Source of the DNA: Thermoplasmata archaeon
GTDB taxonomy: Archaea; Thermoplasmatota; Thermoplasmata; Lutacidiplasmatales; UBA184
Direction: 5' to 3'
DNA length: 64,000 nucleotides
NCBI GenBank assembly: GCA_035502455.1
Contig: DATJUI010000015.1
Span: forward strand, 50,249 to 114,248
Shown here: positions 215-29,483 of the stretch, piece by piece
Numbering within the stretch: the first letter of the stretch is position 1
How the letters are laid out: each line of letters starts with the position of its first letter
The notes under the pieces: model-generated
What the model saw: the letters and a program-made list of their open reading frames with translations, nothing else
Told to the model about the DNA's origin: nothing
Databases searched by the model: none
Program-made: the position numbers and the translations under genes

Positions 215-439
215 CTACGTGCCGCGCTTGCGGCGCATGTACCGGGTCGCGTACCCGGCGATTCGGTTGGCGAGCTTCTTGTGCGTGACCTGGATCTTCC
301 CGTCGACGACGACGCCGAGGTCGGTCAGCTCGAGGACCTTCTGCTTGTTCTTCGCGAAGTCGCCCGAGAAATCGTTCGGATAGTGACGGATCAGCTCGAT
401 CGCGACCCGCTTGATGTACGTCTGGCGGATGTTGCCCAT
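215..439 (-). CDS. rps17e: 30S ribosomal protein S17e
   Basis: The C-terminal 74 aa of minus ORF 215..1066 (MGNIRQTYIKRVAIELIRHYP...KKLANRIAGYATRYMRRKRGT) match the archaeal S17e family. ATG at 437-439; the upstream part of the listed ORF is GC-driven read-through. Confidence 0.85.
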   Translation of the reverse strand: MGNIRQTYIKRVAIELIRHYPNDFSGDFAKNKQKVLELTDLGVVVDGKIQVTHKKLANRIAGYATRYMRRKRGT

Positions 440-463
440 GCGGGGGCGCGGACCCAGGTGCCG

Positions 464-470
464 TTTATAA
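464..470 (-). promoter_or_regulatory. TATA box (TTATAAA on the minus strand) about 25-31 nt upstream of the rps17e ATG
   Basis: AT-rich TTTATAA island in otherwise 70% GC DNA at canonical archaeal spacing for a leaderless transcript. Confidence 0.45.
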
Positions 471-653
471 CCGTAGCTCTCCCGCCGGTCGTTCCGCCTC
501 GTGCGGGGGCCGCCGTCGCCGGCCCGGCCGGCCGTTCGGCGGAACGCACAAATACCCAGCCCTGGGTAATTGTTGACCGTGCGCAACGGCGGAGCCGTCC
601 GGGGGGGCTCCCGGTCCGGGTAGGACCGGCTCTTCGGACCCCGCGCGCGGTCG

Positions 654-2165
654 ATGCCGGACGACACAGCTTCCTCCAACCCTGTTCCCGCACGGGAACG
701 GAACGTGCTCCTGCTCGACCTTTCGAAGAGCATGCTCGCCCCGCTGCCGGACTCGGAGAACGGGTCGTCGGTGGAGCGGCAGAAGATCGAGGTCGCCCGC
801 ACCGCGGTCTTCCAGATCCTGCAGGACGCGGTGAACGCGAGCTCGCTGTTCGGCCTCGTGACCTTCACCGAGACGGTCCGGGTCCCCGTGCCGCTCGGCG
901 AGATCCACCGGGAGAACCTCCCGTACATCGAGAACCTGATCGCGCTCCTCCAGCCGAGCGGCCGGTCCGCCATCTGGGACGCCCTGGCCGTCGGCGCGGA
1001 CCTGCTGCGGTCGGGGACGAACGGGGTCCGCGGCAACCTCGTGCTCGTCACGGACGGCTGGGACAACGCGTCGACGCGGTTCGACGTGCGCGCGAAGCCG
1101 GACGCCGCGCTCGGCGCGGGCCGGGTCGACCTGGTCCCCTACGTCCTGCCGGCGAACTCGAAGGTGACGCTGCGGATCATCGGGATCGGCAGCGGCGCCG
1201 AGCGCGACAAGGGCGTCGACGTCGGGCGGATGGGCCAGTTCCTCGAGCAGATGAACGGGCGCGCGTCGTCCCTCGGGCTCCCGGCCGCGTTCACCTTCCA
1301 GGAGGTGACGACCGGCGGCCAGCTGTTCGCGCAGATGGTCAACGCGTTCGTCGACGTCGGCTACGACGACGACGCGCCGATCGAGGACCTCCATCCCGAG
1401 GAGCTCGCGCGCCACGCGGCGAACGCCGCGCGGGCGCTCAAGGAGCCGCAGCAGCACGCGACGGTCGCCAAGATCCACGCCGGGGCGCCCGCGTCCCGGG
1501 CCGACCCGGACACCACGTTCTCGGAGGCACCCGACCTCGAGGTCGACGTCGTCGCGACGGCGACCCACGGGGGCGCCCCGATCTCGCTCAAGGAGCGGTA
1601 CGGTCCGCTCGGCGAGGTGATCGAGGCGTACCAGGCCGGCGACTTCGACACCGCGCTCCAGTTGATCGGTCGGACCCAGGGCGTGGTGCCGCCCGTCACC
1701 CGACTCTACTGGGAGGCCCGCATCCAGTACGCCCGGCGCGCGATCGTCGAGGCGGCGCGCGCGCTCCTGCAGGCGTGGACCGAGGCGGAGAAGCTGCCGC
1801 CGGCGACGCAGGCGCGGATCCTGCGCCGGCTCGCGCTGCTCCAGGCGCGCATGCAGAACGACAAGGAGACGGAGACGCTCGTCCGGTTCATCGACGAGAC
1901 GGAGCACCGGCTCGGCAACGGCGACCCGAAGGGCCGCGAGCGGCTCATGGACCTGTTCACGAAGCTGATGGAGCTGCGGGGAACGTACCAGCTCACCCAG
2001 CTCGCCGGCGAGGGCGACCTCCAGGACGCCGCCTTAAAGCACGAGGCGGCGGTCGAGGAGGTCTTCGGCCTCCTCCAGGACGCCCGCCTCGACCTCTCGT
2101 CGTCCGGCTCGGTCGTCGAGGGGGCGCTCGACTTCATCGAGATATGCCTCGCGGAGATGCGGTAG
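654..2165 (+). CDS. von Willebrand factor A (vWA) domain protein with a helical C-terminal region
   Basis: N-terminal MIDAS signature (VLLLDLSKSM ... GRSAIWDAL ... LVLVTDGWDN), i.e. the DxSxS...T...D metal-site pattern of vWA domains. The C-terminal ~250 aa are predicted helical. Confidence 0.8.
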   Translation: MPDDTASSNPVPARERNVLLLDLSKSMLAPLPDSENGSSVERQKIEVARTAVFQILQDAVNASSLFGLVTFTETVRVPVPLGEIHRENLPYIENLIALLQPSGRSAIWDALAVGADLLRSGTNGVRGNLVLVTDGWDNASTRFDVRAKPDAALGAGRVDLVPYVLPANSKVTLRIIGIGSGAERDKGVDVGRMGQFLEQMNGRASSLGLPAAFTFQEVTTGGQLFAQMVNAFVDVGYDDDAPIEDLHPEELARHAANAARALKEPQQHATVAKIHAGAPASRADPDTTFSEAPDLEVDVVATATHGGAPISLKERYGPLGEVIEAYQAGDFDTALQLIGRTQGVVPPVTRLYWEARIQYARRAIVEAARALLQAWTEAEKLPPATQARILRRLALLQARMQNDKETETLVRFIDETEHRLGNGDPKGRERLMDLFTKLMELRGTYQLTQLAGEGDLQDAALKHEAAVEEVFGLLQDARLDLSSSGSVVEGALDFIEICLAEMR

Positions 2166-2175
2166 GGAGAACGGG

Positions 2176-3342
2176 ATGCCCGCGGTGAAGGTGACCACAC
2201 GGACCCGACGCCCGGCCGGCGCGAAGCGCGAGATGAAGCGGGGCCCGGACACGGCGCGGATCGCCGTCGTCGGGATCCCGGCCTCGGGCAAGACGACGTA
2301 CTTCAGGTTCCTCTCGGGGCATTTCGGGCTCAACCTGCCGATCCTGTACATCCCGGCCCGGGTCGACAACGGGACGATGCCGCTGTACGGGGACCTCGAG
2401 AACGACGTCGCGCTCGAGGAGACGACGTACGAGACGACCGACCCCACCGACCCCGAGGGGAGCCTCGAGACGACGACCCGGTACTACGTCAATCGGCCGA
2501 TGGAGGACCGGCGCAAGCTGTGGGTCGAGCTCTCGGCGGGCCGGGAGGACCAGGGGATCCTCACGAAGTACCCGCTGCCGACCAAGTTCAACCAGTTCGT
2601 CGAGATGAAGCTCCGCTTCCGCTACGGGGCCGCCGACGGCGACGCCGGCTCGCGGCCGATGGAGCTGCAGACGATCGACGAGGCGGGCGGGATCATCGCC
2701 GACTACTTCACCTACGATCGGCTCTGGCTCGACTCGACCGACGCCGAGGTCTCCGAGAAGTCGTGCCGGGTGATCCCGCACTTCGACTCGTGGCGCCCCG
2801 ACCGCCGGGACCTCTGGCGCCGCGGGCTCACCCTGCTGGGACGGTTCGTCCAGGAGGCCGACGCGATCATCCTCCTGCTCGCCCCCGGGCTCCCGTCGCT
2901 GCGCGACCAGGCCCAGCAGGTCAACCTCGCCCGCGGCGTGTTCCGGTACGTCCGGGCCCGCAACCTCCCGCTCGTCATCGCGATCTCGAAGTCGGACAAG
3001 CTCAACGAGTTCTACGGCGAGGTCGAGCAGTCCGTGCGGGACCGCACGTTCCGCAGCGCGTTCGATCCCGTCGACTTCCTGCTCCGGCGCGACGGGGCCG
3101 GGATGGGCACGATCCTCGTCGCCCAGGAAGGGCGGGGGATCTCGGTGAAGGAGGACGTCTACCTGATCGCGTCCGCGGTCTCGACCGGCGAAGGGCACCC
3201 GCTGTTCATCGGCGAGACCGGTCAGGAGGCGCCGACGTCCGGCACGACCACGCTGGGGGTCCCCGTGATGGTCAACACGACCCTGCCGCTCGCGCGCGCC
3301 TGCGAGCGGATCCTCGCGCTCCGCGCGACCAAGGGGTCGTGA
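2176..3342 (+). CDS. Divergent Ras-like small GTPase (P-loop NTPase) with a long insertion between G1 and G3
   Basis: G1 GIPASGKTT, G3 IDEAGG (DxxG), G4 AISKSDK (NKxD variant SKSD) and G5 ASAV in canonical order. It starts 10 nt after the vWA gene, and its stop overlaps the next start (ATGA). Confidence 0.7.
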   Translation: MPAVKVTTRTRRPAGAKREMKRGPDTARIAVVGIPASGKTTYFRFLSGHFGLNLPILYIPARVDNGTMPLYGDLENDVALEETTYETTDPTDPEGSLETTTRYYVNRPMEDRRKLWVELSAGREDQGILTKYPLPTKFNQFVEMKLRFRYGAADGDAGSRPMELQTIDEAGGIIADYFTYDRLWLDSTDAEVSEKSCRVIPHFDSWRPDRRDLWRRGLTLLGRFVQEADAIILLLAPGLPSLRDQAQQVNLARGVFRYVRARNLPLVIAISKSDKLNEFYGEVEQSVRDRTFRSAFDPVDFLLRRDGAGMGTILVAQEGRGISVKEDVYLIASAVSTGEGHPLFIGETGQEAPTSGTTTLGVPVMVNTTLPLARACERILALRATKGS

Positions 3343-6332
3343 TGGCCGCGGCCGAGCCGCGCGCCGTCGGGACCCTCGCGCCGATCGCGGTCGTCTGGTG
3401 CCGGCAGGTCGACAACGAGGCGGAGAGCCCGGGCTACACGACGATCCCCGAGGAGTTCCCCGGCCGGCGGGACACCCTGGAGACGATCCGGCACGTCGGG
3501 AACCTCACGATCAACGTCGCCGACACCCACGACTACTGGGACCCCGAGCCCGGGCAGACGCTGTCGTACTACCCGAACCTGTTCCTGTACCCCACCGCCG
3601 GCGGACGTCACATCTGCGTCGGCCGGATGTTCCTCTCCACCGAGGACCGCCCGCGGCTCGGGATGAAGACGCTCGTCTTCGACACCGCCACGCTGGTCGA
3701 GTCCGGGGACTTCGGCGGGGCCCTCCTGCGCGCCCACGCGACGATGGGGTCGAGGTCCGAGGGGCCGCGCAAGGCGGAGGCCGAGCCCGACCCGTCCGTG
3801 ATCGCGGCGGTCGGCGAGGGGTTCCTCTTCCACCGCGGCTCGACCGAGGCGGTCGTCCTCGTCGCCGCCGAGCAGTGGGAGGCCGCCAACCGGGTGCTCG
3901 CCGAGCTCGTGCGGCGGCTGCCCGTCTCGCTCGTCGCCCTCGGCGCGTTCCTGTCGTTCCCGTACTTCCTGCCCGAGGCGAAGGTGAACCTCCACGAGTT
4001 CACCGAGTCGCTGCCGCTCGCGCTGGCGATCATGCGCGTCCCCCGCGGCGAGGCCCAGGGCGAACGGCACGCGAAGCGCCTGTCGAGCTGGGAGGCCGGC
4101 CCCGTCGCGGTCCGCGACCTCACCCGCCCGTCGCCCGGCCGCGCGAAGGAGACCCTCCCGACCGTCCTCCAGTACGTCCGCGACCACGCCGACGACAAGC
4201 TCGCGGAGATCGCCCGGCGCGTCGATCTCGTCGAGCTGCCCCGCCTGCGCTCCTCCGGGACGGATCCCGAGCACCAGACCGGCCGCGACCGGCGCAAGGA
4301 GATGTGGCGGATCGGGACGGCGATGGAGACCGCCGCGCTCCTGATCGCGCGCCCGAAGGGCCGGACCGTGCCCGTGAGCGCCGACGCGAGCCGGCGGGCG
4401 AACGAGTACCTGCGCGCCCGTCCGGCCGACGGCGTCGGCCCGGTCGAGCCGACCGCGCCGCCCCCGCTCGATCTCCCCGCCCCGGCGGCGTCGCCCCTCG
4501 TCGCCCAGCTCCCGCCGTGGCTGCAGCGGCCGGCCGAGGTGACGCTCCCGCCGGCCGGCCCGGTCGCCGTGCCGGTGTCGATCAGCGACGACCCGTCGCT
4601 CCAGCGCAATCCGGCGCCGCCCGCCGTCGCGAGCGGCCCGACCCCGGGCGCCCCGCCCGGGGCGAACGACCCCGACCTCGAGGCCTGGCTCCGCCGGGAG
4701 GTCGAGGCCCGGTTCCAGGAGCTCAGCCGCGCGCTGCCCCCGAGCCCCGGCACCGCCGCCTTCGAGCAGCGGATGCAGGAGCTCGGCCGCGAGCTCGAGT
4801 CGAAGTGGACCCGGGCCCTCGAGACCCGGGTGCGCGAGGTCGCCGAGGTCGAGGCCCGGGCGATCCTGTCGCTCCAGCACGACCTCTCGGGCCGGCTCAA
4901 CGCCGTGGAGGCGCGGCCGGTCCCCGTGCTGCCGCCGAGCGCCGACGAGACAGCCCAGCAGATCCGCACGGCCGTCGAGGCGCGGGCGCAGCTGCTCGCC
5001 GAGACGCTGCGCGAGAGCGTCCGCCAGTCGAGCGAGATGTGGGCGGCCGCGCTCAAGCTCGAGCTCCACCGGTCCGTCGACGAGCTCGCGGCGAAGTCGG
5101 CCCGCTCCGAGGAGGAGCTCCGCGCCGGCCTCGTCGCCCAGCTCGACCTCGAGCTGCGGGAGACGAAGGAGCAGGCGACCGCGCTGCGCGAGGAGGTCGA
5201 AGGGCGGGTGCGCGACCTCCTCAACGAGCGGTGGAACGAGATCGACCAGCGGCGCCAGAAGGAGGTCCGGGACGTGGAGCAGCGGCTCACGCTCCTCTCC
5301 GACGGGCGCGCGAAGGACCTCGAGGCGAAGCTGACGTCGATGATCGCCGCGGAACGGGAGCGCACCCAGGCCGCCTTCGAAGAGCGGGTCCAGGCCGCCG
5401 AGCGCCGGCTCGCCGTCGAGCAGGAGTCCCGGGCGACCGAGGTCTCCGAATCGCAGGGCCAGTCGCTCGCCGGGTTCCAGGTGAGGATGCAGGCGTTCTT
5501 CGAGCAGAAGCTCCGGGAGAACCAGGAGCGGGAACGCGAGAAGTACGTGGAACTGCTCGCCCGCTTCAAGGGCGAGGTCGACTCGGCCCTCGGCCGCACG
5601 ATCGACTCGACCAAGTTCGACGCGGCCGTTCGGGAGCGCGTCGCGCGCGTCCTGGACGCGGCGCGCGCGGACCAGGAGAAGACGATCGCCTCGCGCGTCA
5701 CCGACGCCGAGGTCCGCCTGCGCTCGGCGCAGGAGGAGGCCGCGCTGCGGCTCGAGCGGGTCGAGTCGAAGCTCCAGCAGCGGGAGACCGACCTCGCGCG
5801 CATCGAGCGGTCGGTGCGGCACGACGCGGAGGAGATCGAGCGCCGGGTGCAGGTGCTGACCGACCGGATGCTGCCGCTCGTCCGCAAGACGTGGCTCAAG
5901 GTCGGCGAGCTCGAGAAGGCCGGTCCGATCCCGGGCGACGTCGAGGCCCGGACCGAGGCGATCCGGCGGGAGATGACCCGCGAGCTGCGCCGCATCGAGG
6001 GCGAGATGCTCGAGCAGACGACGGAGCTCCGCGACCGGCTCGAGACCACGATCTCCCAGCAGGGCCGCATCTGGCTCAACTTCGTCCACCAGCTCGCGGA
6101 GGCCGGCGCGAACCTGATGCCGGCCGATGCGTCGAGCGGCCGCTCGTCGCGCCGGCTCGCGCCGCGGCCGAACCTCGGCCGCGCCGAGGACGCGGACGTC
6201 GACCTGCGGGCGACCGCCGGGGTCGACGCGTTCGCCGAGGACCCCGCGAACCCGCTCGACCCGGATCCGCTCGCCGATCCCGAGGCGGGCCGGGACGTCC
6301 GCCGCCGCAGCCGCCCCCGGACGGGCGGCTAG
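3342..6332 (+). CDS. Large (~996 aa) protein: globular N-terminal region, Pro/Ala-rich linker, ~450-aa coiled coil
   Basis: Internal ATG at 3342 overlaps the upstream stop, so the listed ORF 2520..6332 is over-extended at the N-terminus. Residues ~480-930 are continuous heptad-like charged, Ala/Leu/Glu/Arg-rich sequence (EARAILSLQHDLSGRLNAVE... ELRAGLVAQLDLELRETKEQ...). Confidence 0.7.
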   Translation: MAAAEPRAVGTLAPIAVVWCRQVDNEAESPGYTTIPEEFPGRRDTLETIRHVGNLTINVADTHDYWDPEPGQTLSYYPNLFLYPTAGGRHICVGRMFLSTEDRPRLGMKTLVFDTATLVESGDFGGALLRAHATMGSRSEGPRKAEAEPDPSVIAAVGEGFLFHRGSTEAVVLVAAEQWEAANRVLAELVRRLPVSLVALGAFLSFPYFLPEAKVNLHEFTESLPLALAIMRVPRGEAQGERHAKRLSSWEAGPVAVRDLTRPSPGRAKETLPTVLQYVRDHADDKLAEIARRVDLVELPRLRSSGTDPEHQTGRDRRKEMWRIGTAMETAALLIARPKGRTVPVSADASRRANEYLRARPADGVGPVEPTAPPPLDLPAPAASPLVAQLPPWLQRPAEVTLPPAGPVAVPVSISDDPSLQRNPAPPAVASGPTPGAPPGANDPDLEAWLRREVEARFQELSRALPPSPGTAAFEQRMQELGRELESKWTRALETRVREVAEVEARAILSLQHDLSGRLNAVEARPVPVLPPSADETAQQIRTAVEARAQLLAETLRESVRQSSEMWAAALKLELHRSVDELAAKSARSEEELRAGLVAQLDLELRETKEQATALREEVEGRVRDLLNERWNEIDQRRQKEVRDVEQRLTLLSDGRAKDLEAKLTSMIAAERERTQAAFEERVQAAERRLAVEQESRATEVSESQGQSLAGFQVRMQAFFEQKLRENQEREREKYVELLARFKGEVDSALGRTIDSTKFDAAVRERVARVLDAARADQEKTIASRVTDAEVRLRSAQEEAALRLERVESKLQQRETDLARIERSVRHDAEEIERRVQVLTDRMLPLVRKTWLKVGELEKAGPIPGDVEARTEAIRREMTRELRRIEGEMLEQTTELRDRLETTISQQGRIWLNFVHQLAEAGANLMPADASSGRSSRRLAPRPNLGRAEDADVDLRATAGVDAFAEDPANPLDPDPLADPEAGRDVRRRSRPRTGG

Positions 6333-6364: not shown

Positions 6365-6553
6365 GTGACCGTTCCCGACGACCACCGGCACTGCAAGGTC
6401 TGCGGACGGGCGTGCGCGCCGGAGTCCGAGACGTGCAGCCGGGCGTGCGCCCAGCGCCGGGCCGACCAGCTCCAGACCCGCCGGATGTACAGCTACCTCA
6501 TGTATGGCGCGATCGCGCTCCTGGTCATCGTGCTGGTCTCGCACTACCTGTAG
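6365..6553 (+). CDS. Small zinc-ribbon protein with a C-terminal transmembrane helix
   Basis: CKVCGRACAPESETCSRAC (CxxC...CxxxC) followed by a hydrophobic tail YLMYGAIALLVIVLVSHYL. Short, so uncertain. Confidence 0.4.
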   Translation: MTVPDDHRHCKVCGRACAPESETCSRACAQRRADQLQTRRMYSYLMYGAIALLVIVLVSHYL

Positions 6554-6565
6554 GGGCGGCGCGCG

Positions 6566-7363
6566 ATGCCTCGGTTCGGGACGGCGGTCCTGGGCGGCAC
6601 GTTCGACCGGTTCCACGTCGGCCACGCGGCCCTGCTGGCCGCGGCGTTCGCCGCCGGACGGACCGTCGCGATCGGCCTCACGACCCCGGGGTACCTCGCC
6701 GCCCACCCGAAGCCGGACGGCGGCCGGATCCAGCCGTACGCGACGCGGCGAGCGGCCGTCGTGCGCTGGATCCGCCGGGCCCGGCCCCACGCCGCCTTCC
6801 GGATCGTGGCGCTCCGCGACCCGTTCGGCGGGTCGGTCGGCCCCGGGGTCGACGTGCTGGTCGTCTCCGCGGAGACCCGGCGCGGCGGGGCGGCGGTCAA
6901 CCGGGAGCGCCGGCGCCGCGGCCTCCCCGCCGTCCCCGTCGTCACCGTCCCGATCGTGCTCGCCGACGACCTCGGTCCGGTCAGCTCCCGGCGGATCCGC
7001 GCGGGCGAGATCGACCGGTCGGGGGGGCGACGCGCACCGATCGCGATCGGGCTCTCGGTCCCGCCCGCGCTCCGCGCGTCGGCGGTCCGCGGCGTGCGGC
7101 GGGCGTTCCCGACCGCCCGCCTCGCGCTCCTCGGCGGGCCGTTCCCGCGAGCGGGCCCCCCGCGGCGCGGGCTCTCGAGGCTCGCCGCGGCGGCGGGCGC
7201 CGGCCGCGACCTGGGGGTCGCGGTCCGGGTCGGACCGGCGGGCGACGCGTGGGCCGCCGAGGCGACGGCGACCGTCGCGCTCGCCCCGACGCTCCTGACC
7301 CGGCCCGACGCGGGCCGGATCGCCGCCTGGCTGGCCCCGTCCCGTCGGCGCAAGTCCTTTTGA
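6566..7363 (+). CDS. coaD: Archaeal-type phosphopantetheine adenylyltransferase-like cytidylyltransferase with a ~110-aa low-complexity C-terminal extension
   Basis: N-terminal GGTFDRFHVGH (nucleotidyltransferase HxGH motif) and the ISxxxIR-like region SSRRIRAGEI. The C-terminal third is Ala/Arg/Pro-rich low complexity. Confidence 0.65.
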   Translation: MPRFGTAVLGGTFDRFHVGHAALLAAAFAAGRTVAIGLTTPGYLAAHPKPDGGRIQPYATRRAAVVRWIRRARPHAAFRIVALRDPFGGSVGPGVDVLVVSAETRRGGAAVNRERRRRGLPAVPVVTVPIVLADDLGPVSSRRIRAGEIDRSGGRRAPIAIGLSVPPALRASAVRGVRRAFPTARLALLGGPFPRAGPPRRGLSRLAAAAGAGRDLGVAVRVGPAGDAWAAEATATVALAPTLLTRPDAGRIAAWLAPSRRRKSF

Positions 7364-7385
7364 CGGGCGGCGCCTCGTCCGGGCG

Positions 7386-7607
7386 ATGGAAACCTACCTT
7401 CGGGTGACGTTCGACAGCGAGGGCGGCAAACCGAGCGAGGTCGGGAACCGGCTGCGCTCGTGCGGGTTCGTCCCGACCCAGGGGAACTACGACTTCGTCT
7501 ACGACTGGAACGGACCGGCGACCCGGGACCAGATCCTCGACCTCTCGGACGAGCTCACCCGGCAGCTCCGCTCGTACCGGGTGCTGTTCGAGATCGAGAC
7601 GATCTGA
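7386..7607 (+). CDS. Small conserved protein of unknown family (paralogue of 47374..47604)
   Basis: 73 aa; shares the pattern DSEG...GF.P..G.YDFVYDW..PAT.D..L...D......RV.F.IE with the ORF at 47374..47604. Confidence 0.6.
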   Translation: METYLRVTFDSEGGKPSEVGNRLRSCGFVPTQGNYDFVYDWNGPATRDQILDLSDELTRQLRSYRVLFEIETI

Positions 7608-7649
7608 GCGCCGGTAGGGCTTTTATCGCGTCCCACCCGTACTCGGCCG

Positions 7650-7967
7650 ATGCAGCGCTACCCGGTCCGGCCGACCCACCGCAAGGGACTCGCGGCCGAG
7701 CCGCTCGCGGAGCTCCTTCGGGCGTCGTTCGAGGAGGTGCGCGTGGAGGGAGACGGCGCGTCGGCGTCGTTCGGGGCGATCGTGCGGATCGTCGCGCGCC
7801 CCGAGGGCCGGGAGCTCGCGATCGAGGTCACGATGAACCCGAAGGTCCCCGAGGAGGTCGCCGCCGAGACGATCCAGCGGTACAACCGCTTCCTCGAGGC
7901 GGTGACCGGATACTCCGCGAAGGAGCGGGCGAAGCGCCTCCGCAAAACCGCCGCCGGTGGGGAGTAA
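7650..7967 (+). CDS. Hypothetical small protein
   Basis: 105-aa ORF with balanced composition in the gap between flanking genes; no recognisable motif. Confidence 0.45.
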   Translation: MQRYPVRPTHRKGLAAEPLAELLRASFEEVRVEGDGASASFGAIVRIVARPEGRELAIEVTMNPKVPEEVAAETIQRYNRFLEAVTGYSAKERAKRLRKTAAGGE

Positions 7968-9552
7968 CGGCGTGCCGGCCGGGGGTTCCGGTCCGCTCCC
8001 GTCGGGCGCCGGGGGTTCCGAGCTCGAGCGGATCCGCGCGATCGTCGCCGCCTACTTTCCGGTCTACGAGACCCGGGTCGGGCCCCAGTCGCTCCTGCTC
8101 GCGATCCACCCGGACCCCGCGACCCTCGAGACGAAGTTCGACGCGCTACGGCGCGAGCTGTGGCCGAAGCAGTACGTGCCGCTCCTGCGGCGGCAGTCCG
8201 GCGAGGAGTTCATCGAGGTCGTCCGCCGGCCGCCGGTCGGCCCGTCGCGGACCTGGATCAACCTCCTGCTGCTCGCCGGCACGGTCCTCACCACGACGTT
8301 CGCCGGCGCGCTGATCTGGCTCGCGTACGTCGGCAGCAACACCCTCGGCCTCGGGGACTTCGCCTACGGCGCGCTCTACTTCGCGGCGCCGGTGCTCCTC
8401 ATCCTCGGGCTCCACGAGTTCGCCCACTTCTGGATGGCCCGCCGCCACCACCTGGACGCGTCGCTCCCGTACTTCATCCCGGTCCCGCCGCCGCTCCTGT
8501 TCGGGACGCTCGGGGCGTTCATCTCGATCCGCGAGCCGTTCCCGGACAAGAAGGCGCTGTTCGACGTCGGCGTCGCGGGCCCGCTGGCCGGGTTCGCCGT
8601 CTCGATCCCGATCGCGATCGCCGGGCTGTTCCTCTCCGTGCACGCCCCGTCGGTCCCGGCGAGCTACTGCGGGCCGACGATCCTCGGGGTCAGCTACGGG
8701 AACCTGCTCATCGGCACGCCGCTCCTCTGGCTCGGGCTCCAGCTGTTCGTCCCCGTGAGCACGAGCCTGAGCCCGCTCGCGCTCGCGGGCTGGGTCGGGA
8801 TCCTGGTCACCGCGATCAACCTCCTGCCCGCCGGTCAGCTCGACGGCGGCCACGTCTTTCGGGCGCTGTTCGGCGACCGGGTCCGCTGGGTGAGCTACGG
8901 CGCCGTGCTCGTGATGTTCGGCATCGGGATCTTCTTCTACGCCGGCTGGCTGTTCTTCGCCCTCCTGATCCTGCTCCTCGGGGTCCGCCATCCGCCGCCG
9001 CTCAACGACCTCAGTCCCCTCGACTGGAAACGGGGGGCCATCGGCGCGTTCGCGATCGGGGTGCTCGTCGTCGGGTTCGTGCTGACGCCGCTCGCGACGC
9101 CCGCCGGGGCGGTCGCGTTCCAGAACAACGGGATCGGCTACCCGACGGCCCCGCCGGGGGCCGCCGTGTACACGAACCTCTCGACGCAGCTCGCCAACCA
9201 GGACCCGCTGCCGCACGGGTTCGTCGTCGCGGGGTCGGTCGTCAACGTCTCGGTGCCCGTGGGGAACTCGAGCGAGTACCTGACCGGGGCGGCGTTCGCG
9301 AGCTGGACCGCGAACGTGACGTGGACGGTCTACCTGCCGCACGGGGCGGTCTACACCGCCCGCGGGGCGTCGTTCGCGCTGCCGTCGAGCGACTTCCTGA
9401 CGATCAACGGGACGACCTGGGCGCCGCTCGCGATCGGCTTCGCGAGCCCCGCGGCGGCCACCAGCGCGGGGATCGACCTCTCGGCCTCGGAGTTCTGCGC
9501 GCTGACCGGCGGGTCCGCCTCGACCTCGTTCGCGCCGAGCTGGGACGCCTAG
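7957..9552 (+). CDS. Site-2 protease family (M50) membrane metalloprotease with a C-terminal extracytoplasmic domain
   Basis: HEFAHFWMARRH (HExxH inside a TM helix), the LDGG motif (LLPAGQLDGGHVF) and multiple TM segments. The C-terminal ~150 aa carry N-glycosylation sequons. Confidence 0.85.
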   Translation: MGSNGVPAGGSGPLPSGAGGSELERIRAIVAAYFPVYETRVGPQSLLLAIHPDPATLETKFDALRRELWPKQYVPLLRRQSGEEFIEVVRRPPVGPSRTWINLLLLAGTVLTTTFAGALIWLAYVGSNTLGLGDFAYGALYFAAPVLLILGLHEFAHFWMARRHHLDASLPYFIPVPPPLLFGTLGAFISIREPFPDKKALFDVGVAGPLAGFAVSIPIAIAGLFLSVHAPSVPASYCGPTILGVSYGNLLIGTPLLWLGLQLFVPVSTSLSPLALAGWVGILVTAINLLPAGQLDGGHVFRALFGDRVRWVSYGAVLVMFGIGIFFYAGWLFFALLILLLGVRHPPPLNDLSPLDWKRGAIGAFAIGVLVVGFVLTPLATPAGAVAFQNNGIGYPTAPPGAAVYTNLSTQLANQDPLPHGFVVAGSVVNVSVPVGNSSEYLTGAAFASWTANVTWTVYLPHGAVYTARGASFALPSSDFLTINGTTWAPLAIGFASPAAATSAGIDLSASEFCALTGGSASTSFAPSWDA

Positions 9553-29362: not shown

Positions 29363-29382
29363 CGCGGACGGAGCCGGCGACA

Positions 29383-29457
29383 CGGGCGCGGAGGGATTTG
29401 AACCCTCGACCGCCGGGTTAGGAACCCGGTGCCCTATCCAAGCTAGGCTACGCGCCC
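29383..29457 (-). tRNA. tRNA-Arg (anticodon CCU), CCA not encoded
   Basis: Cloverleaf: acceptor GGGCGCG/CGCGCCC, D-arm GCCT-AGCTTGGATA-GGGC, anticodon stem CCGGG/CCCGG with loop TTCCTAA, variable CGGTC, T-arm GAGGG-TTCAAAT-CCCTC, discriminator G. T-rich stretch downstream. Confidence 0.85.
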
Positions 29458-29483
29458 GATCCCGTCCGACCCTCGGCGGGTTA

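Follow-up and report, generated by a model that had tools for sequence, protein, structure and literature searches.

The window analysed here is a stretch of 64,000 nucleotides (nt) from a Thermoplasmata archaeon of the order Lutacidiplasmatales (assembly GCA_035502455.1, contig DATJUI010000015.1, positions 50,249 to 114,248), and its G+C content is 72%. The order, formerly known as the TMEG group, consists of uncultured soil archaea with genomes of about 69% GC (PMC9287336), and the closest database relatives of the window are metagenome-assembled Thermoplasmata genomes, some of them named Lutacidiplasmatales. We focus on the gene at 2176..3342, which encodes a divergent GTPase-like P-loop protein of 388 amino acids (aa) belonging to a new family, and on its two neighbours; all features below lie on the forward strand unless stated otherwise. 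The gene starts with an ATG, 10 nt past the stop of the preceding gene, which encodes a vWA protein, and has a GGAG in front. The GC content at its codon positions 1, 2 and 3 is 0.65, 0.47 and 0.97, and since a third-position peak is the signature of the true coding frame in such a GC-rich genome, this open reading frame (ORF) is a genuine gene, as its more than 350 homologues also indicate. Two long ORFs that overlap it, 2134..3198 on the reverse strand and 2520-3338 on the forward strand, have their GC peak at codon position 1, and this misplaced peak marks them as the shadow ORFs typical of a genome with 72% GC.

The gene is the middle one of a triad. The vWA gene (654..2165) encodes 503 aa, with the vWA domain at the N-terminus and helices making up the C-terminal half, and the third gene (3342..6332) encodes a coiled-coil protein of about 996 aa, called the partner below, whose ATG overlaps the stop of the GTPase gene (TGATG, 3339-3344); translation could alternatively begin at an in-frame GTG at 3339. 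The order vWA, GTPase, coiled-coil protein was found in 80 of 80 testable loci, i.e. those whose contig reaches far enough to show the neighbouring genes. The vWA gene is directly upstream of the GTPase gene in every locus whose contig reaches there, and the partner family was seen only beside the GTPase. Even the most distant locus (L001) keeps the triad, with identities of 40% for the vWA protein, 60% for the GTPase and 41% for the coiled-coil protein. In 53 of 63 loci, the GTPase stop and the partner start overlap or abut, an arrangement that indicates translational coupling. A housekeeping-type run of genes further downstream (6365-9552) is syntenic in most related loci and gone from the neighbourhood in some, and the triad is therefore the stable unit. 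Across loci, the median identity is 85% for the GTPase, 74% for the vWA protein, 71% for the N-terminal domain of the partner and 67% for the M50 protease of the downstream run; no other gene of the region is as conserved as that of the GTPase, on which purifying selection is stronger than on its neighbours. None of the three triad proteins has transmembrane segments, and in searches of Pfam, NCBIfam, PADLOC and the PDB sequences only the vWA protein had matches above threshold.

A first-pass annotation of the letters had read the middle gene as a GTPase with the motifs G1, G3, G4 and G5 in this order. To judge their conservation we used an alignment of 46 homologues, down to 56% identity, and a narrower set of 18 close homologues at 84-93% identity. 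All four motifs are where that annotation had placed them, and their key residues are invariant in both sets. G1, the Walker A motif GIPASGKTT (aa 33-41, 2272..2298), varies only at A36, which can be Ser; its residues G33, P35, S37, G38, K39, T40 and T41 are invariant and fit the pattern GxxxxGK[ST], and the motif aligns to the P-loops of FeoB, Der and MMR_HSR1. G3, the Walker B and switch II motif TIDEAGG (aa 166-172, 2671..2691), lies at the end of the predicted β3, with T166, D168, E169, A170, G171 and G172 invariant. It conforms to the pattern hhhhDxxG as MELQTI-D168-E-A-G171. The invariant Gly172 occupies the position of the catalytic Gln61 of Ras, and there is no Gln after DxxG. In G5 (LIASAVS, aa 330-336, 3163..3183), at the end of the predicted β6, the invariant S333 and A334 correspond to the "SA" of the Ras SAK motif.

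The G4 motif VIAISKSDKL (aa 267-276, 2974..3003), at the end of the predicted β5, substitutes SK[AS]D for NKxD. As expected of [NT]KxD, K272 and D274 do not vary among the homologues, while the first residue is an invariant Ser (S271), neither Asn nor Thr; position 273 is mostly Ala, which gives the family motif SK[AS]D. The replacement of Asn by Ser in G4, originally read from this one sequence, thus extends to the 46 homologues without exception. Other GTPases also depart from Asn at this position, with Thr in dynamin (TKxD), His in Rag (HKxD) and Ala in septins (AKAD). By analogy, Ser would be a conservative and tolerated variant and should keep guanine specificity, because the specificity-determining Asp is retained. 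The conserved SKxD, together with Gly at the catalytic position, makes the protein well suited to asking how much divergence the G4 and G3 motifs tolerate. Ahead of the motifs, the basic N-terminal tail (aa 1-26, 2176..2253) is poorly conserved: its K+R content is 0.31, it has zero invariant columns, its pLDDT is below 50, and among homologues its length varies from about 20 to 130 aa, with a Pro/Ala/Lys-rich composition (P0144, P0146, P0192). It is probably disordered and might possibly contact a membrane or nucleic acid.

The protein is far from the compact G domain of about 170-200 aa of small Ras-like GTPases, since it carries inserts at aa 54-129, 289-327 and 337-362, the last being a low-confidence loop. 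The largest accounts for the unusual distance between G1 and G3. K39 and D168 are 129 residues apart, compared with 41 in Ras (K16 to D57 in textbook numbering), so the spacing is indeed far longer than in Ras, Arf or Rab, as first noted, and the true excess is about 80-90 aa instead of the insertion of about 130 aa that had been proposed. The family-specific insert proper is about 76 aa long (aa 54-129, 2335..2562, EETTYETTDPTDPEGSLETTTRYYVNRP), and 20 of its 76 columns are invariant. Its description as acidic and Thr-rich holds, with 0.21 D+E and 0.12 T compared with 0.13 and 0.08 in the whole protein. In the AlphaFold model it forms five predicted β-strands (54-56, 70-72, 78-87, 97-108 and 115-119) between α1 and switch I with the β2-β3 hairpin. 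The junction of α1 and switch I is the site where G-alpha carries its helical domain.

The first-pass annotation had also seen no obvious Thr-containing switch I, and here the alignment corrects it. Directly before the predicted β2 lies a candidate switch I or G2 motif, LTKYPLPTKF (aa 130-139, 2563..2592), within the block L-T-K-Y-P-L-P-T-K-[FY]-N (aa 129-139), where T130, K131, Y132, P133, L134, P135, T136, K137 and N139 are invariant. T136, four residues before the predicted β2 (140-150), is likely the Mg-coordinating threonine of switch I. A loop of 9 residues joins β2 to β3 (160-169), and with so short a connection the two strands should form an antiparallel hairpin, the mark of TRAFAC GTPases. 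The two corrections, on the size of the insert and on the switch I threonine, leave the interpretation of the protein as a divergent GTPase unchanged.

We modelled the protein with AlphaFold2 and the 46-sequence alignment. The model is of moderate confidence (pLDDT 63.5, pTM 0.72) and predicts, in order, β1 (27-33), the P-loop, α1, the five short strands (54-119), β2, β3, helices (173-226), β4 (230-235), α3 (242-262), β5 (266-271), α4 (273-288), three short helices (298-327), β6 (328-334), a long loop, a short strand (364-366) and a C-terminal helix (369-385). G3, G4 and G5 fall at the C-terminal ends of the predicted β3, β5 and β6, and the β2/β3 hairpin precedes DxxG. The order of the elements in the model is that of the Ras-like/TRAFAC layout, with each G motif at the expected strand end.

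Searches with the GTPase in Pfam, NCBIfam, PADLOC and the PDB sequences gave no match above threshold, and the weak matches of the single sequence (AAA_18, GPN/ATP_bind_1, FeoB, adenylate kinase) cover the P-loop only. More could be seen below threshold when each of the 46 family members was run separately against Pfam. GTP_EFTU was matched by 37 of the 46, at model positions of about 90-150, which correspond to β4-α3-β5-NKxD, and the matches of some members to RsgA and to ATP_bind_1/GPN place the NKxD strand on SK[AS]D. When the family profile was searched against the PDB sequences, the top match was Der (E=0.006), with IIAVNKWD on VIAISKAD. There was no match to the Pfam models Ras, Arf, Roc, Gtr1 or SRPRB even at E<=1. 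An alignment of the full family profile with H-Ras by hhalign was confined to the P-loop; after trimming of the insert, ARF1 came out best (probability 76%), with PLPTKFN on IPTIGFN and SKSD on NKQD. Finally, the top 50 matches of the model in a Foldseek search of the PDB were all TRAFAC NTPases, with no kinase among them. MglA and Rab27 had the highest probabilities (0.98-0.99; target-normalised TM score about 0.5, query-normalised 0.27-0.29), the lowest E-values were those of kinesin motor domains, YcjX and the G domain of GBP2, and FeoB was also among the matches.

Several of these results weigh against a GTPase. No curated GTPase model reaches its threshold (E 0.03 for TIGR00231, 0.006 for GTP_EFTU, 0.065 for MMR_HSR1 and 0.006 for Der in the PDB). 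The TM scores relative to the query are low (0.14-0.29), as expected for a 388-aa model that is partly of low confidence. In this model, the P-loop/α1 region and several loops have a pLDDT below 50, and the strand order of the sheet is deduced solely from the DSSP order of the elements. The ARF1 score of 39.7 compares with 34.3 +/- 1.7 (maximum 39.6) for shuffled ARF1 sequences keeping β1 and the P-loop, and the adenylate kinase of Escherichia coli scores 32.6 on the trimmed profile, similar to Ran. We do not claim membership in Arf, as its score is barely above the P-loop-only shuffles and adenylate kinase scores like Ran. On the whole, we have good confidence that the protein is a TRAFAC-type GTPase of a new family, and we do not assign it to any named one. 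This agrees with the initial view of a divergent, lineage-specific GTPase distinct from the standard Arf, Rag and MglA homologues: no curated family reaches threshold, phmmer retrieved only its own family, and the Ser at G4 is kept throughout. The structural comparison points the same way, through the Ras-like order of elements and the TRAFAC matches led in probability by MglA and Rab27. The G3, G4 and G5 assignments do not look like coincidences in a P-loop kinase either, given their placement at strand ends, the GTPase hidden Markov models (HMMs) that fall on SK[AS]D and the Foldseek result.

The partner begins with a globular module of about 335 aa (3342..4343), for which AlphaFold gave a pLDDT of 84.7 and a pTM of 0.87. 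The model has three lobes: an N-terminal β-α-β4-α2 lobe that is longin-like, a β/α lobe that is Rossmann-like, and a helical bundle. The invariant blocks of the module are WCRQVDNEAESP, DTxDYWDP, GRMFLSTEDRPRLGxKT and FPYF, and its invariant arginines are R22, R96, R104 and R106. The DSSP order is compatible with a longin N lobe, an α/β c-DENN and a helical d-DENN, and there is one full-length match of low TM score: in Foldseek, the sole match below 1e-3 was 7mge_C (E 1.8e-4, probability 0.90, full-length, TM 0.22-0.23). The entry 7MGE shows ARF1 together with the C9orf72:SMCR8:WDR41 complex to which it is bound; we confirmed that C9orf72 is present in the entry, and we infer from size and composition that the matched chain C is one of the two longin-DENN subunits. 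Weaker matches were the longin of Lst4, a Lokiarchaeota Roadblock-Longin protein and TagF, with longin-only E-values of 0.36-0.5. In the GAP (GTPase-activating protein) type longins C9orf72, SMCR8, FLCN and NPRL2, β1 and the next loop carry WD/GP pocket motifs by the arginine finger (PMC12290439). Suggestively, WCRQVDNEAESP, the best conserved motif in the partner, maps to this same region of β1 and the next loop. Longin and roadblock domains are more generally platforms for GTPases (PMC3747258, PMC3521125).

Other observations speak against a DENN-like module. Other DENN proteins (FLCN, DENND1B, SMCR8) are absent from its Foldseek top 50, so that the call hangs on a single full-length match of low TM score, with no backing at the sequence level. 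The Pfam models DENN, uDENN, dDENN, FLCN and C9orf72 had no match in 24 partner members at E<=10, the PDB sequences gave no match supporting DENN, and hhalign gave a probability of 0.3% to the alignment of the partner profile with human C9orf72, the sequence of which was verified against the PDB. We put the odds that the head of the partner is longin/DENN-like at roughly even. The partner profile also matched the helices of Wzz chain-length determinants (E 0.002-0.014; the same protein in several PDB entries). These matches involve only the helical aa 259-365, and we rejected them as compositional or coiled-coil noise. The remainder of the partner, by composition, consists of a Pro-rich linker and then about 480 aa of charged helical sequence (4347..6116). 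The linker (aa 336-445) is 25% Pro, and the helical region, which holds a Pro-free stretch of 312 aa, is probably a coiled coil. Partners are 936-1220 aa long in the close clade and about 555 aa in the distant clade, and their C-terminal 100 aa or so are conserved.

The vWA protein matches Pfam VWA_2 (3e-9) and VWA (6e-7), both above the cut-offs. Its metal ion-dependent adhesion site (MIDAS) follows the DxSxS...T/S...D pattern, with D22-x-S24-x-S26, S105 and D134 invariant in 73 orthologues, and is, judged by these residues, intact. No relative of the protein was found among the PDB sequences. Its C-terminal half is possibly TPR-like.

The explanation we favour, and hold to be fairly probable, is that the protein is the founding member of a TRAFAC-type GTPase family that works as the switch of a fixed triad with the vWA protein and a longin/DENN-like partner. 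Judging by the invariant residues, guanine nucleotide would be bound via K39/T40, T136, D168/G171, K272/D274 and S333/A334. Intrinsic hydrolysis would probably be slow, because of the invariant Gly at the position of Ras Gln61, and the catalytic residue would probably be supplied in trans or through dimerisation. A natural donor in trans would be the adjacent longin/DENN-like head, with its four invariant arginines. The GTPase would act as the nucleotide switch of a three-protein module whose members presumably interact physically. The MIDAS of the vWA protein would clamp an acidic side chain, for which the insert beside switch I is a plausible ligand since it is invariant and acidic, and this insert should shift position with the nucleotide state. 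The longin/DENN-like module would likely bind the GTPase as a regulator, either a GAP or a guanine nucleotide exchange factor (GEF), or as an effector, and through the coiled coil the complex would become a long tether or scaffold. We infer that the locus has a housekeeping role, structural or positional in the organisation of the cell, and not one in defence, as suggested by its strict vertical conservation and its housekeeping neighbourhood.

Parts of this evidence can be read in other ways. The protein could be a self-assembling large GTPase activated by dimerisation, or a motor-like NTPase, with a mechanical role alongside the coiled-coil protein in cytoskeletal or membrane remodelling. 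The kinesins, YcjX and GBP2 that gave the lowest Foldseek E-values all carry large insertions after the P-loop helix and ahead of switch I, the catalytic Gln is lacking as in dimerisation-activated GTPases, the coiled coil of the partner is long and variable in length, and the conservation is very high, as in structural proteins. A hydroxyl residue at G4 (TKxD) is also typical of dynamins. Yet kinesin, YcjX and GBP give TM scores of 0.14-0.29, with root-mean-square deviations above 11 A and probabilities below those of MglA and Rab27. There is no Dynamin_N, GBP or YcjX signal in Pfam at E<=1, and no membrane-binding element is evident. As for a motor, the kinesin motifs SSRSH and DLAGSE are absent from a sequence that has SKxD and SA, and the TM scores to kinesin itself are 0.14-0.23. 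We therefore regard this reading as unlikely. Quite unlikely, too, is a P-loop NTPase that is not a GTPase (kinase-like or a generic ATPase), in which the strings resembling G3, G4 and G5 would serve another role. It would account for AAA_18, a P-loop model of the kinase type, being the top-scoring Pfam model in 46 of 46 members (best E 4.7e-5), for the adenylate kinases among the weak PDB matches and for the E. coli enzyme equalling Ran on the trimmed profile. However, the AAA_18 and adenylate kinase matches span essentially just β1, the P-loop and α1, whereas the predicted order, with the β2/β3 hairpin and with SKxD and SA at strand ends, is that of GTPases, and four different GTPase HMMs put NKxD on SK[AS]D; the absence of kinases from the Foldseek top 50 argues in the same direction.

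The two remaining alternatives draw on the genetic context. The triad could be an analogue, with a GTPase, of the pairs MoxR-vWA, CoxD-CoxE and BchI-BchD, where the NTPase would power the remodelling or loading of a substrate by the vWA protein; in the triad, this substrate would be the coiled-coil protein or a metal centre. The vWA gene with its invariant MIDAS is directly upstream, and its product matches the cobaltochelatase model TIGR02442 (E 4e-5), far below the cut-off of that model. To our knowledge, however, the NTPase of every known pair of this type is an AAA+ ATPase and never a Ras-like GTPase. The locus has no linked chelatase, oxidoreductase or other client gene, and the longin/DENN-like partner would be left unexplained. 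The pairing of an NTPase with a vWA protein is a recurrent theme (PMC7159879), which counts in favour of this analogy, and we still consider it very unlikely. Slightly less probable again is that the protein serves as the switch in a DO-GTPase/GAP1-type conflict or defence system, with the downstream protein as a GAP1-like sensor and the vWA protein as an accessory. DO-GTPases (Pfam PF19975/PF19993) belong to the TRAFAC class; a conserved Glu in Walker B defines them, and a large protein of several domains comes after them (Kaur et al. 2020, PMC7159879). The G3 motif D-E-A-G-G has this Glu (the invariant E169), and the Pfam family DO-GTPase2 is matched weakly by 16 of the 46 members (E 0.03-0.19), but these matches cover only the P-loop (model positions 3-16). 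No GAP1-N/M/C, GASH, FNIII, EAD or effector domains were detected in the downstream protein or in 23 homologues of it, an N-terminal zinc ribbon and a second, paralogous GTPase are both lacking, and PADLOC found nothing significant. The locus is fixed and syntenic, lies among housekeeping genes and has a median identity of 85%, the opposite of sporadic and variable conflict systems. We thus set the defence reading aside on context and conservation.

Comparison with known systems helps to place the TRAFAC-type family that we favour. With MglA, Arf, Sar, SR-beta and G-alpha it shares the order of G1-G5, the Ras-like order of elements and the antiparallel β2/β3 hairpin, the latter two as predicted. 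The switch I PLPTKFN resembles the IPTIGFN of Arf, a similarity marginally above the P-loop-only control; the GTPase gene stands beside a longin-like partner as MglA stands beside MglB; and the large insert between α1 and switch I is at the site of the helical domain of G-alpha. In contrast with the MglA/Arf branch, the family protein is twice the size, with a β-rich acidic insert of about 80 aa and two further elaborations, and it has SKxD at G4 and Gly instead of the catalytic Gln. Its P-loop G-x-P-x-S-G-K-T recalls Era, Der and FeoB (TEES), with the best sequence matches to FeoB and the NKWD of Der on SKAD. In HAS-GTPases, a small or hydrophobic residue replaces the catalytic Gln, and the Gly of the family is alike. 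Unlike Era, Der and FeoB, the family has no Asn in the P-loop (A36), no K+-loop signature and no KH domain, FeoB membrane domain or tandem G domains, and the matches to that group are sub-threshold (E 0.006-0.4). Dynamin, GBP and YcjX share the insert-enlarged G domain, the hydroxyl residue at G4 and, for GBP2 and YcjX, weak Foldseek matches, whereas the family lacks a stalk or helical domain in cis, has no Pfam signal for them and gives low TM scores. The DO-GTPase/GAP1 systems are similar in the Glu of Walker B (DEAGG), the large multi-domain downstream protein and the occurrence of vWA in related systems, and differ in that the present family is archaeal and syntenic, without GAP1 domains, zinc ribbons, paired GTPases or effectors.

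The longin-DENN systems (DENND, FLCN-FNIP, C9orf72-SMCR8) resemble the locus in having a GTPase gene beside an N-module that is tripartite in our model; they differ in that the partner is fused to a coiled coil of about 500 aa and has no sequence match to them. In Asgard archaea, a conserved operon encodes a Roadblock protein, a Rab-like GTPase and a DENN protein, DENN being described there as otherwise specific to eukaryotes (bioRxiv 10.1101/2020.10.19.343400). Here, a vWA protein stands in place of the Roadblock protein, and the host lineage is of the euryarchaeal type. We know of no report of DENN proteins outside eukaryotes other than in Asgard archaea. One may speculate, though we find it rather doubtful, that the triad is a non-Asgard counterpart of the small GTPase and longin-DENN logic, with a divergent Arf/MglA-like GTPase, a genuine if extremely divergent longin-DENN module fused to a long coiled-coil tether, and a MIDAS-vWA adaptor, together organising cellular structure. 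An analogy for such an adaptor is the vWA-like trunk of Sec23/24, which engages Sar1. If this were true, DENN-type regulators and tether-like effectors would be older or wider in Archaea than the Asgard-eukaryote lineage, and the module would organise division, shape or a membrane domain in Lutacidiplasmatales. GTPase switches and their longin, roadblock and DENN regulators are central to debates on the origin of the membrane and cytoskeletal organisation of eukaryotes, and a small system of three proteins, amenable to testing and from another archaeal lineage, could show convergent or ancient use of this architecture. The conserved triad of vWA, GTPase and coiled-coil proteins, with its possible longin-DENN-like regulator, is the more interesting aspect of the locus and is only moderately supported. 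Our literature searches returned no description of the GTPase family, of DENN in Thermoplasmatota or of TagF/DENN.

The GTPase family is new and narrowly distributed, and in this respect too the first-pass reading holds despite its two corrections. A phmmer search of 1.84 billion cluster representatives gave 14 matches, of which 13 belong to the family, mostly as fragments; the most distant full-length member is 61% identical. The fourteenth, P0132, was rejected: it is a protein of 3189 aa made of 51-aa tandem repeats, in which a chance match of 26 aa is counted 20 times (E 7e-14). This chance match falls on the C-terminal helix region, and it is a cautionary case for E-values summed over domains. 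Word-indexed searches retrieved about 350 clusters, and every source name that gives an organism is Thermoplasmata or Lutacidiplasmatales. When one genome per GTDB species was scanned, 156 species proved to have relatives of the GTPase; the best 80 of these 156 species genomes are all titled Thermoplasmata or Thermoplasmatota, with one exception titled "bacterium". The exception is locus L015 (DAIDCO010000028.1, "bacterium isolate clean3188"), the genes of which are 75-86% identical to Thermoplasmata ones, and this metagenome-assembled genome is probably mislabelled. As known so far, the family is confined to Thermoplasmata of the Lutacidiplasmatales/TMEG group and relatives. The protein identical to ours is named "GTPase domain-containing protein" at NCBI, most members are "hypothetical", and JGI names a few of them "SAR1 family" or "SRP receptor beta". 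With annotations that are either "hypothetical protein" or inconsistent, the family deserves its own HMM.

The run downstream of the triad (6365-9552) encodes, in this order, a DUF2116 zinc ribbon, a cytidylyltransferase-like protein that is possibly a PPAT, an orphan of 73 aa, a DUF5611 protein and the Peptidase_M50 membrane protease. The orphan is 68-88% identical across loci and has no Pfam match. Elsewhere in the window, the sole tRNA detected is a tRNA-Arg (anticodon CCT) at 29382-29458 on the reverse strand. The ORF at 215..1066, also on the reverse strand, has a C-terminal part (about 215-440) that reads MGNIRQTYIKRVAIELIRHYPNDF... and that we take, from the family motif, to resemble ribosomal protein S17e.

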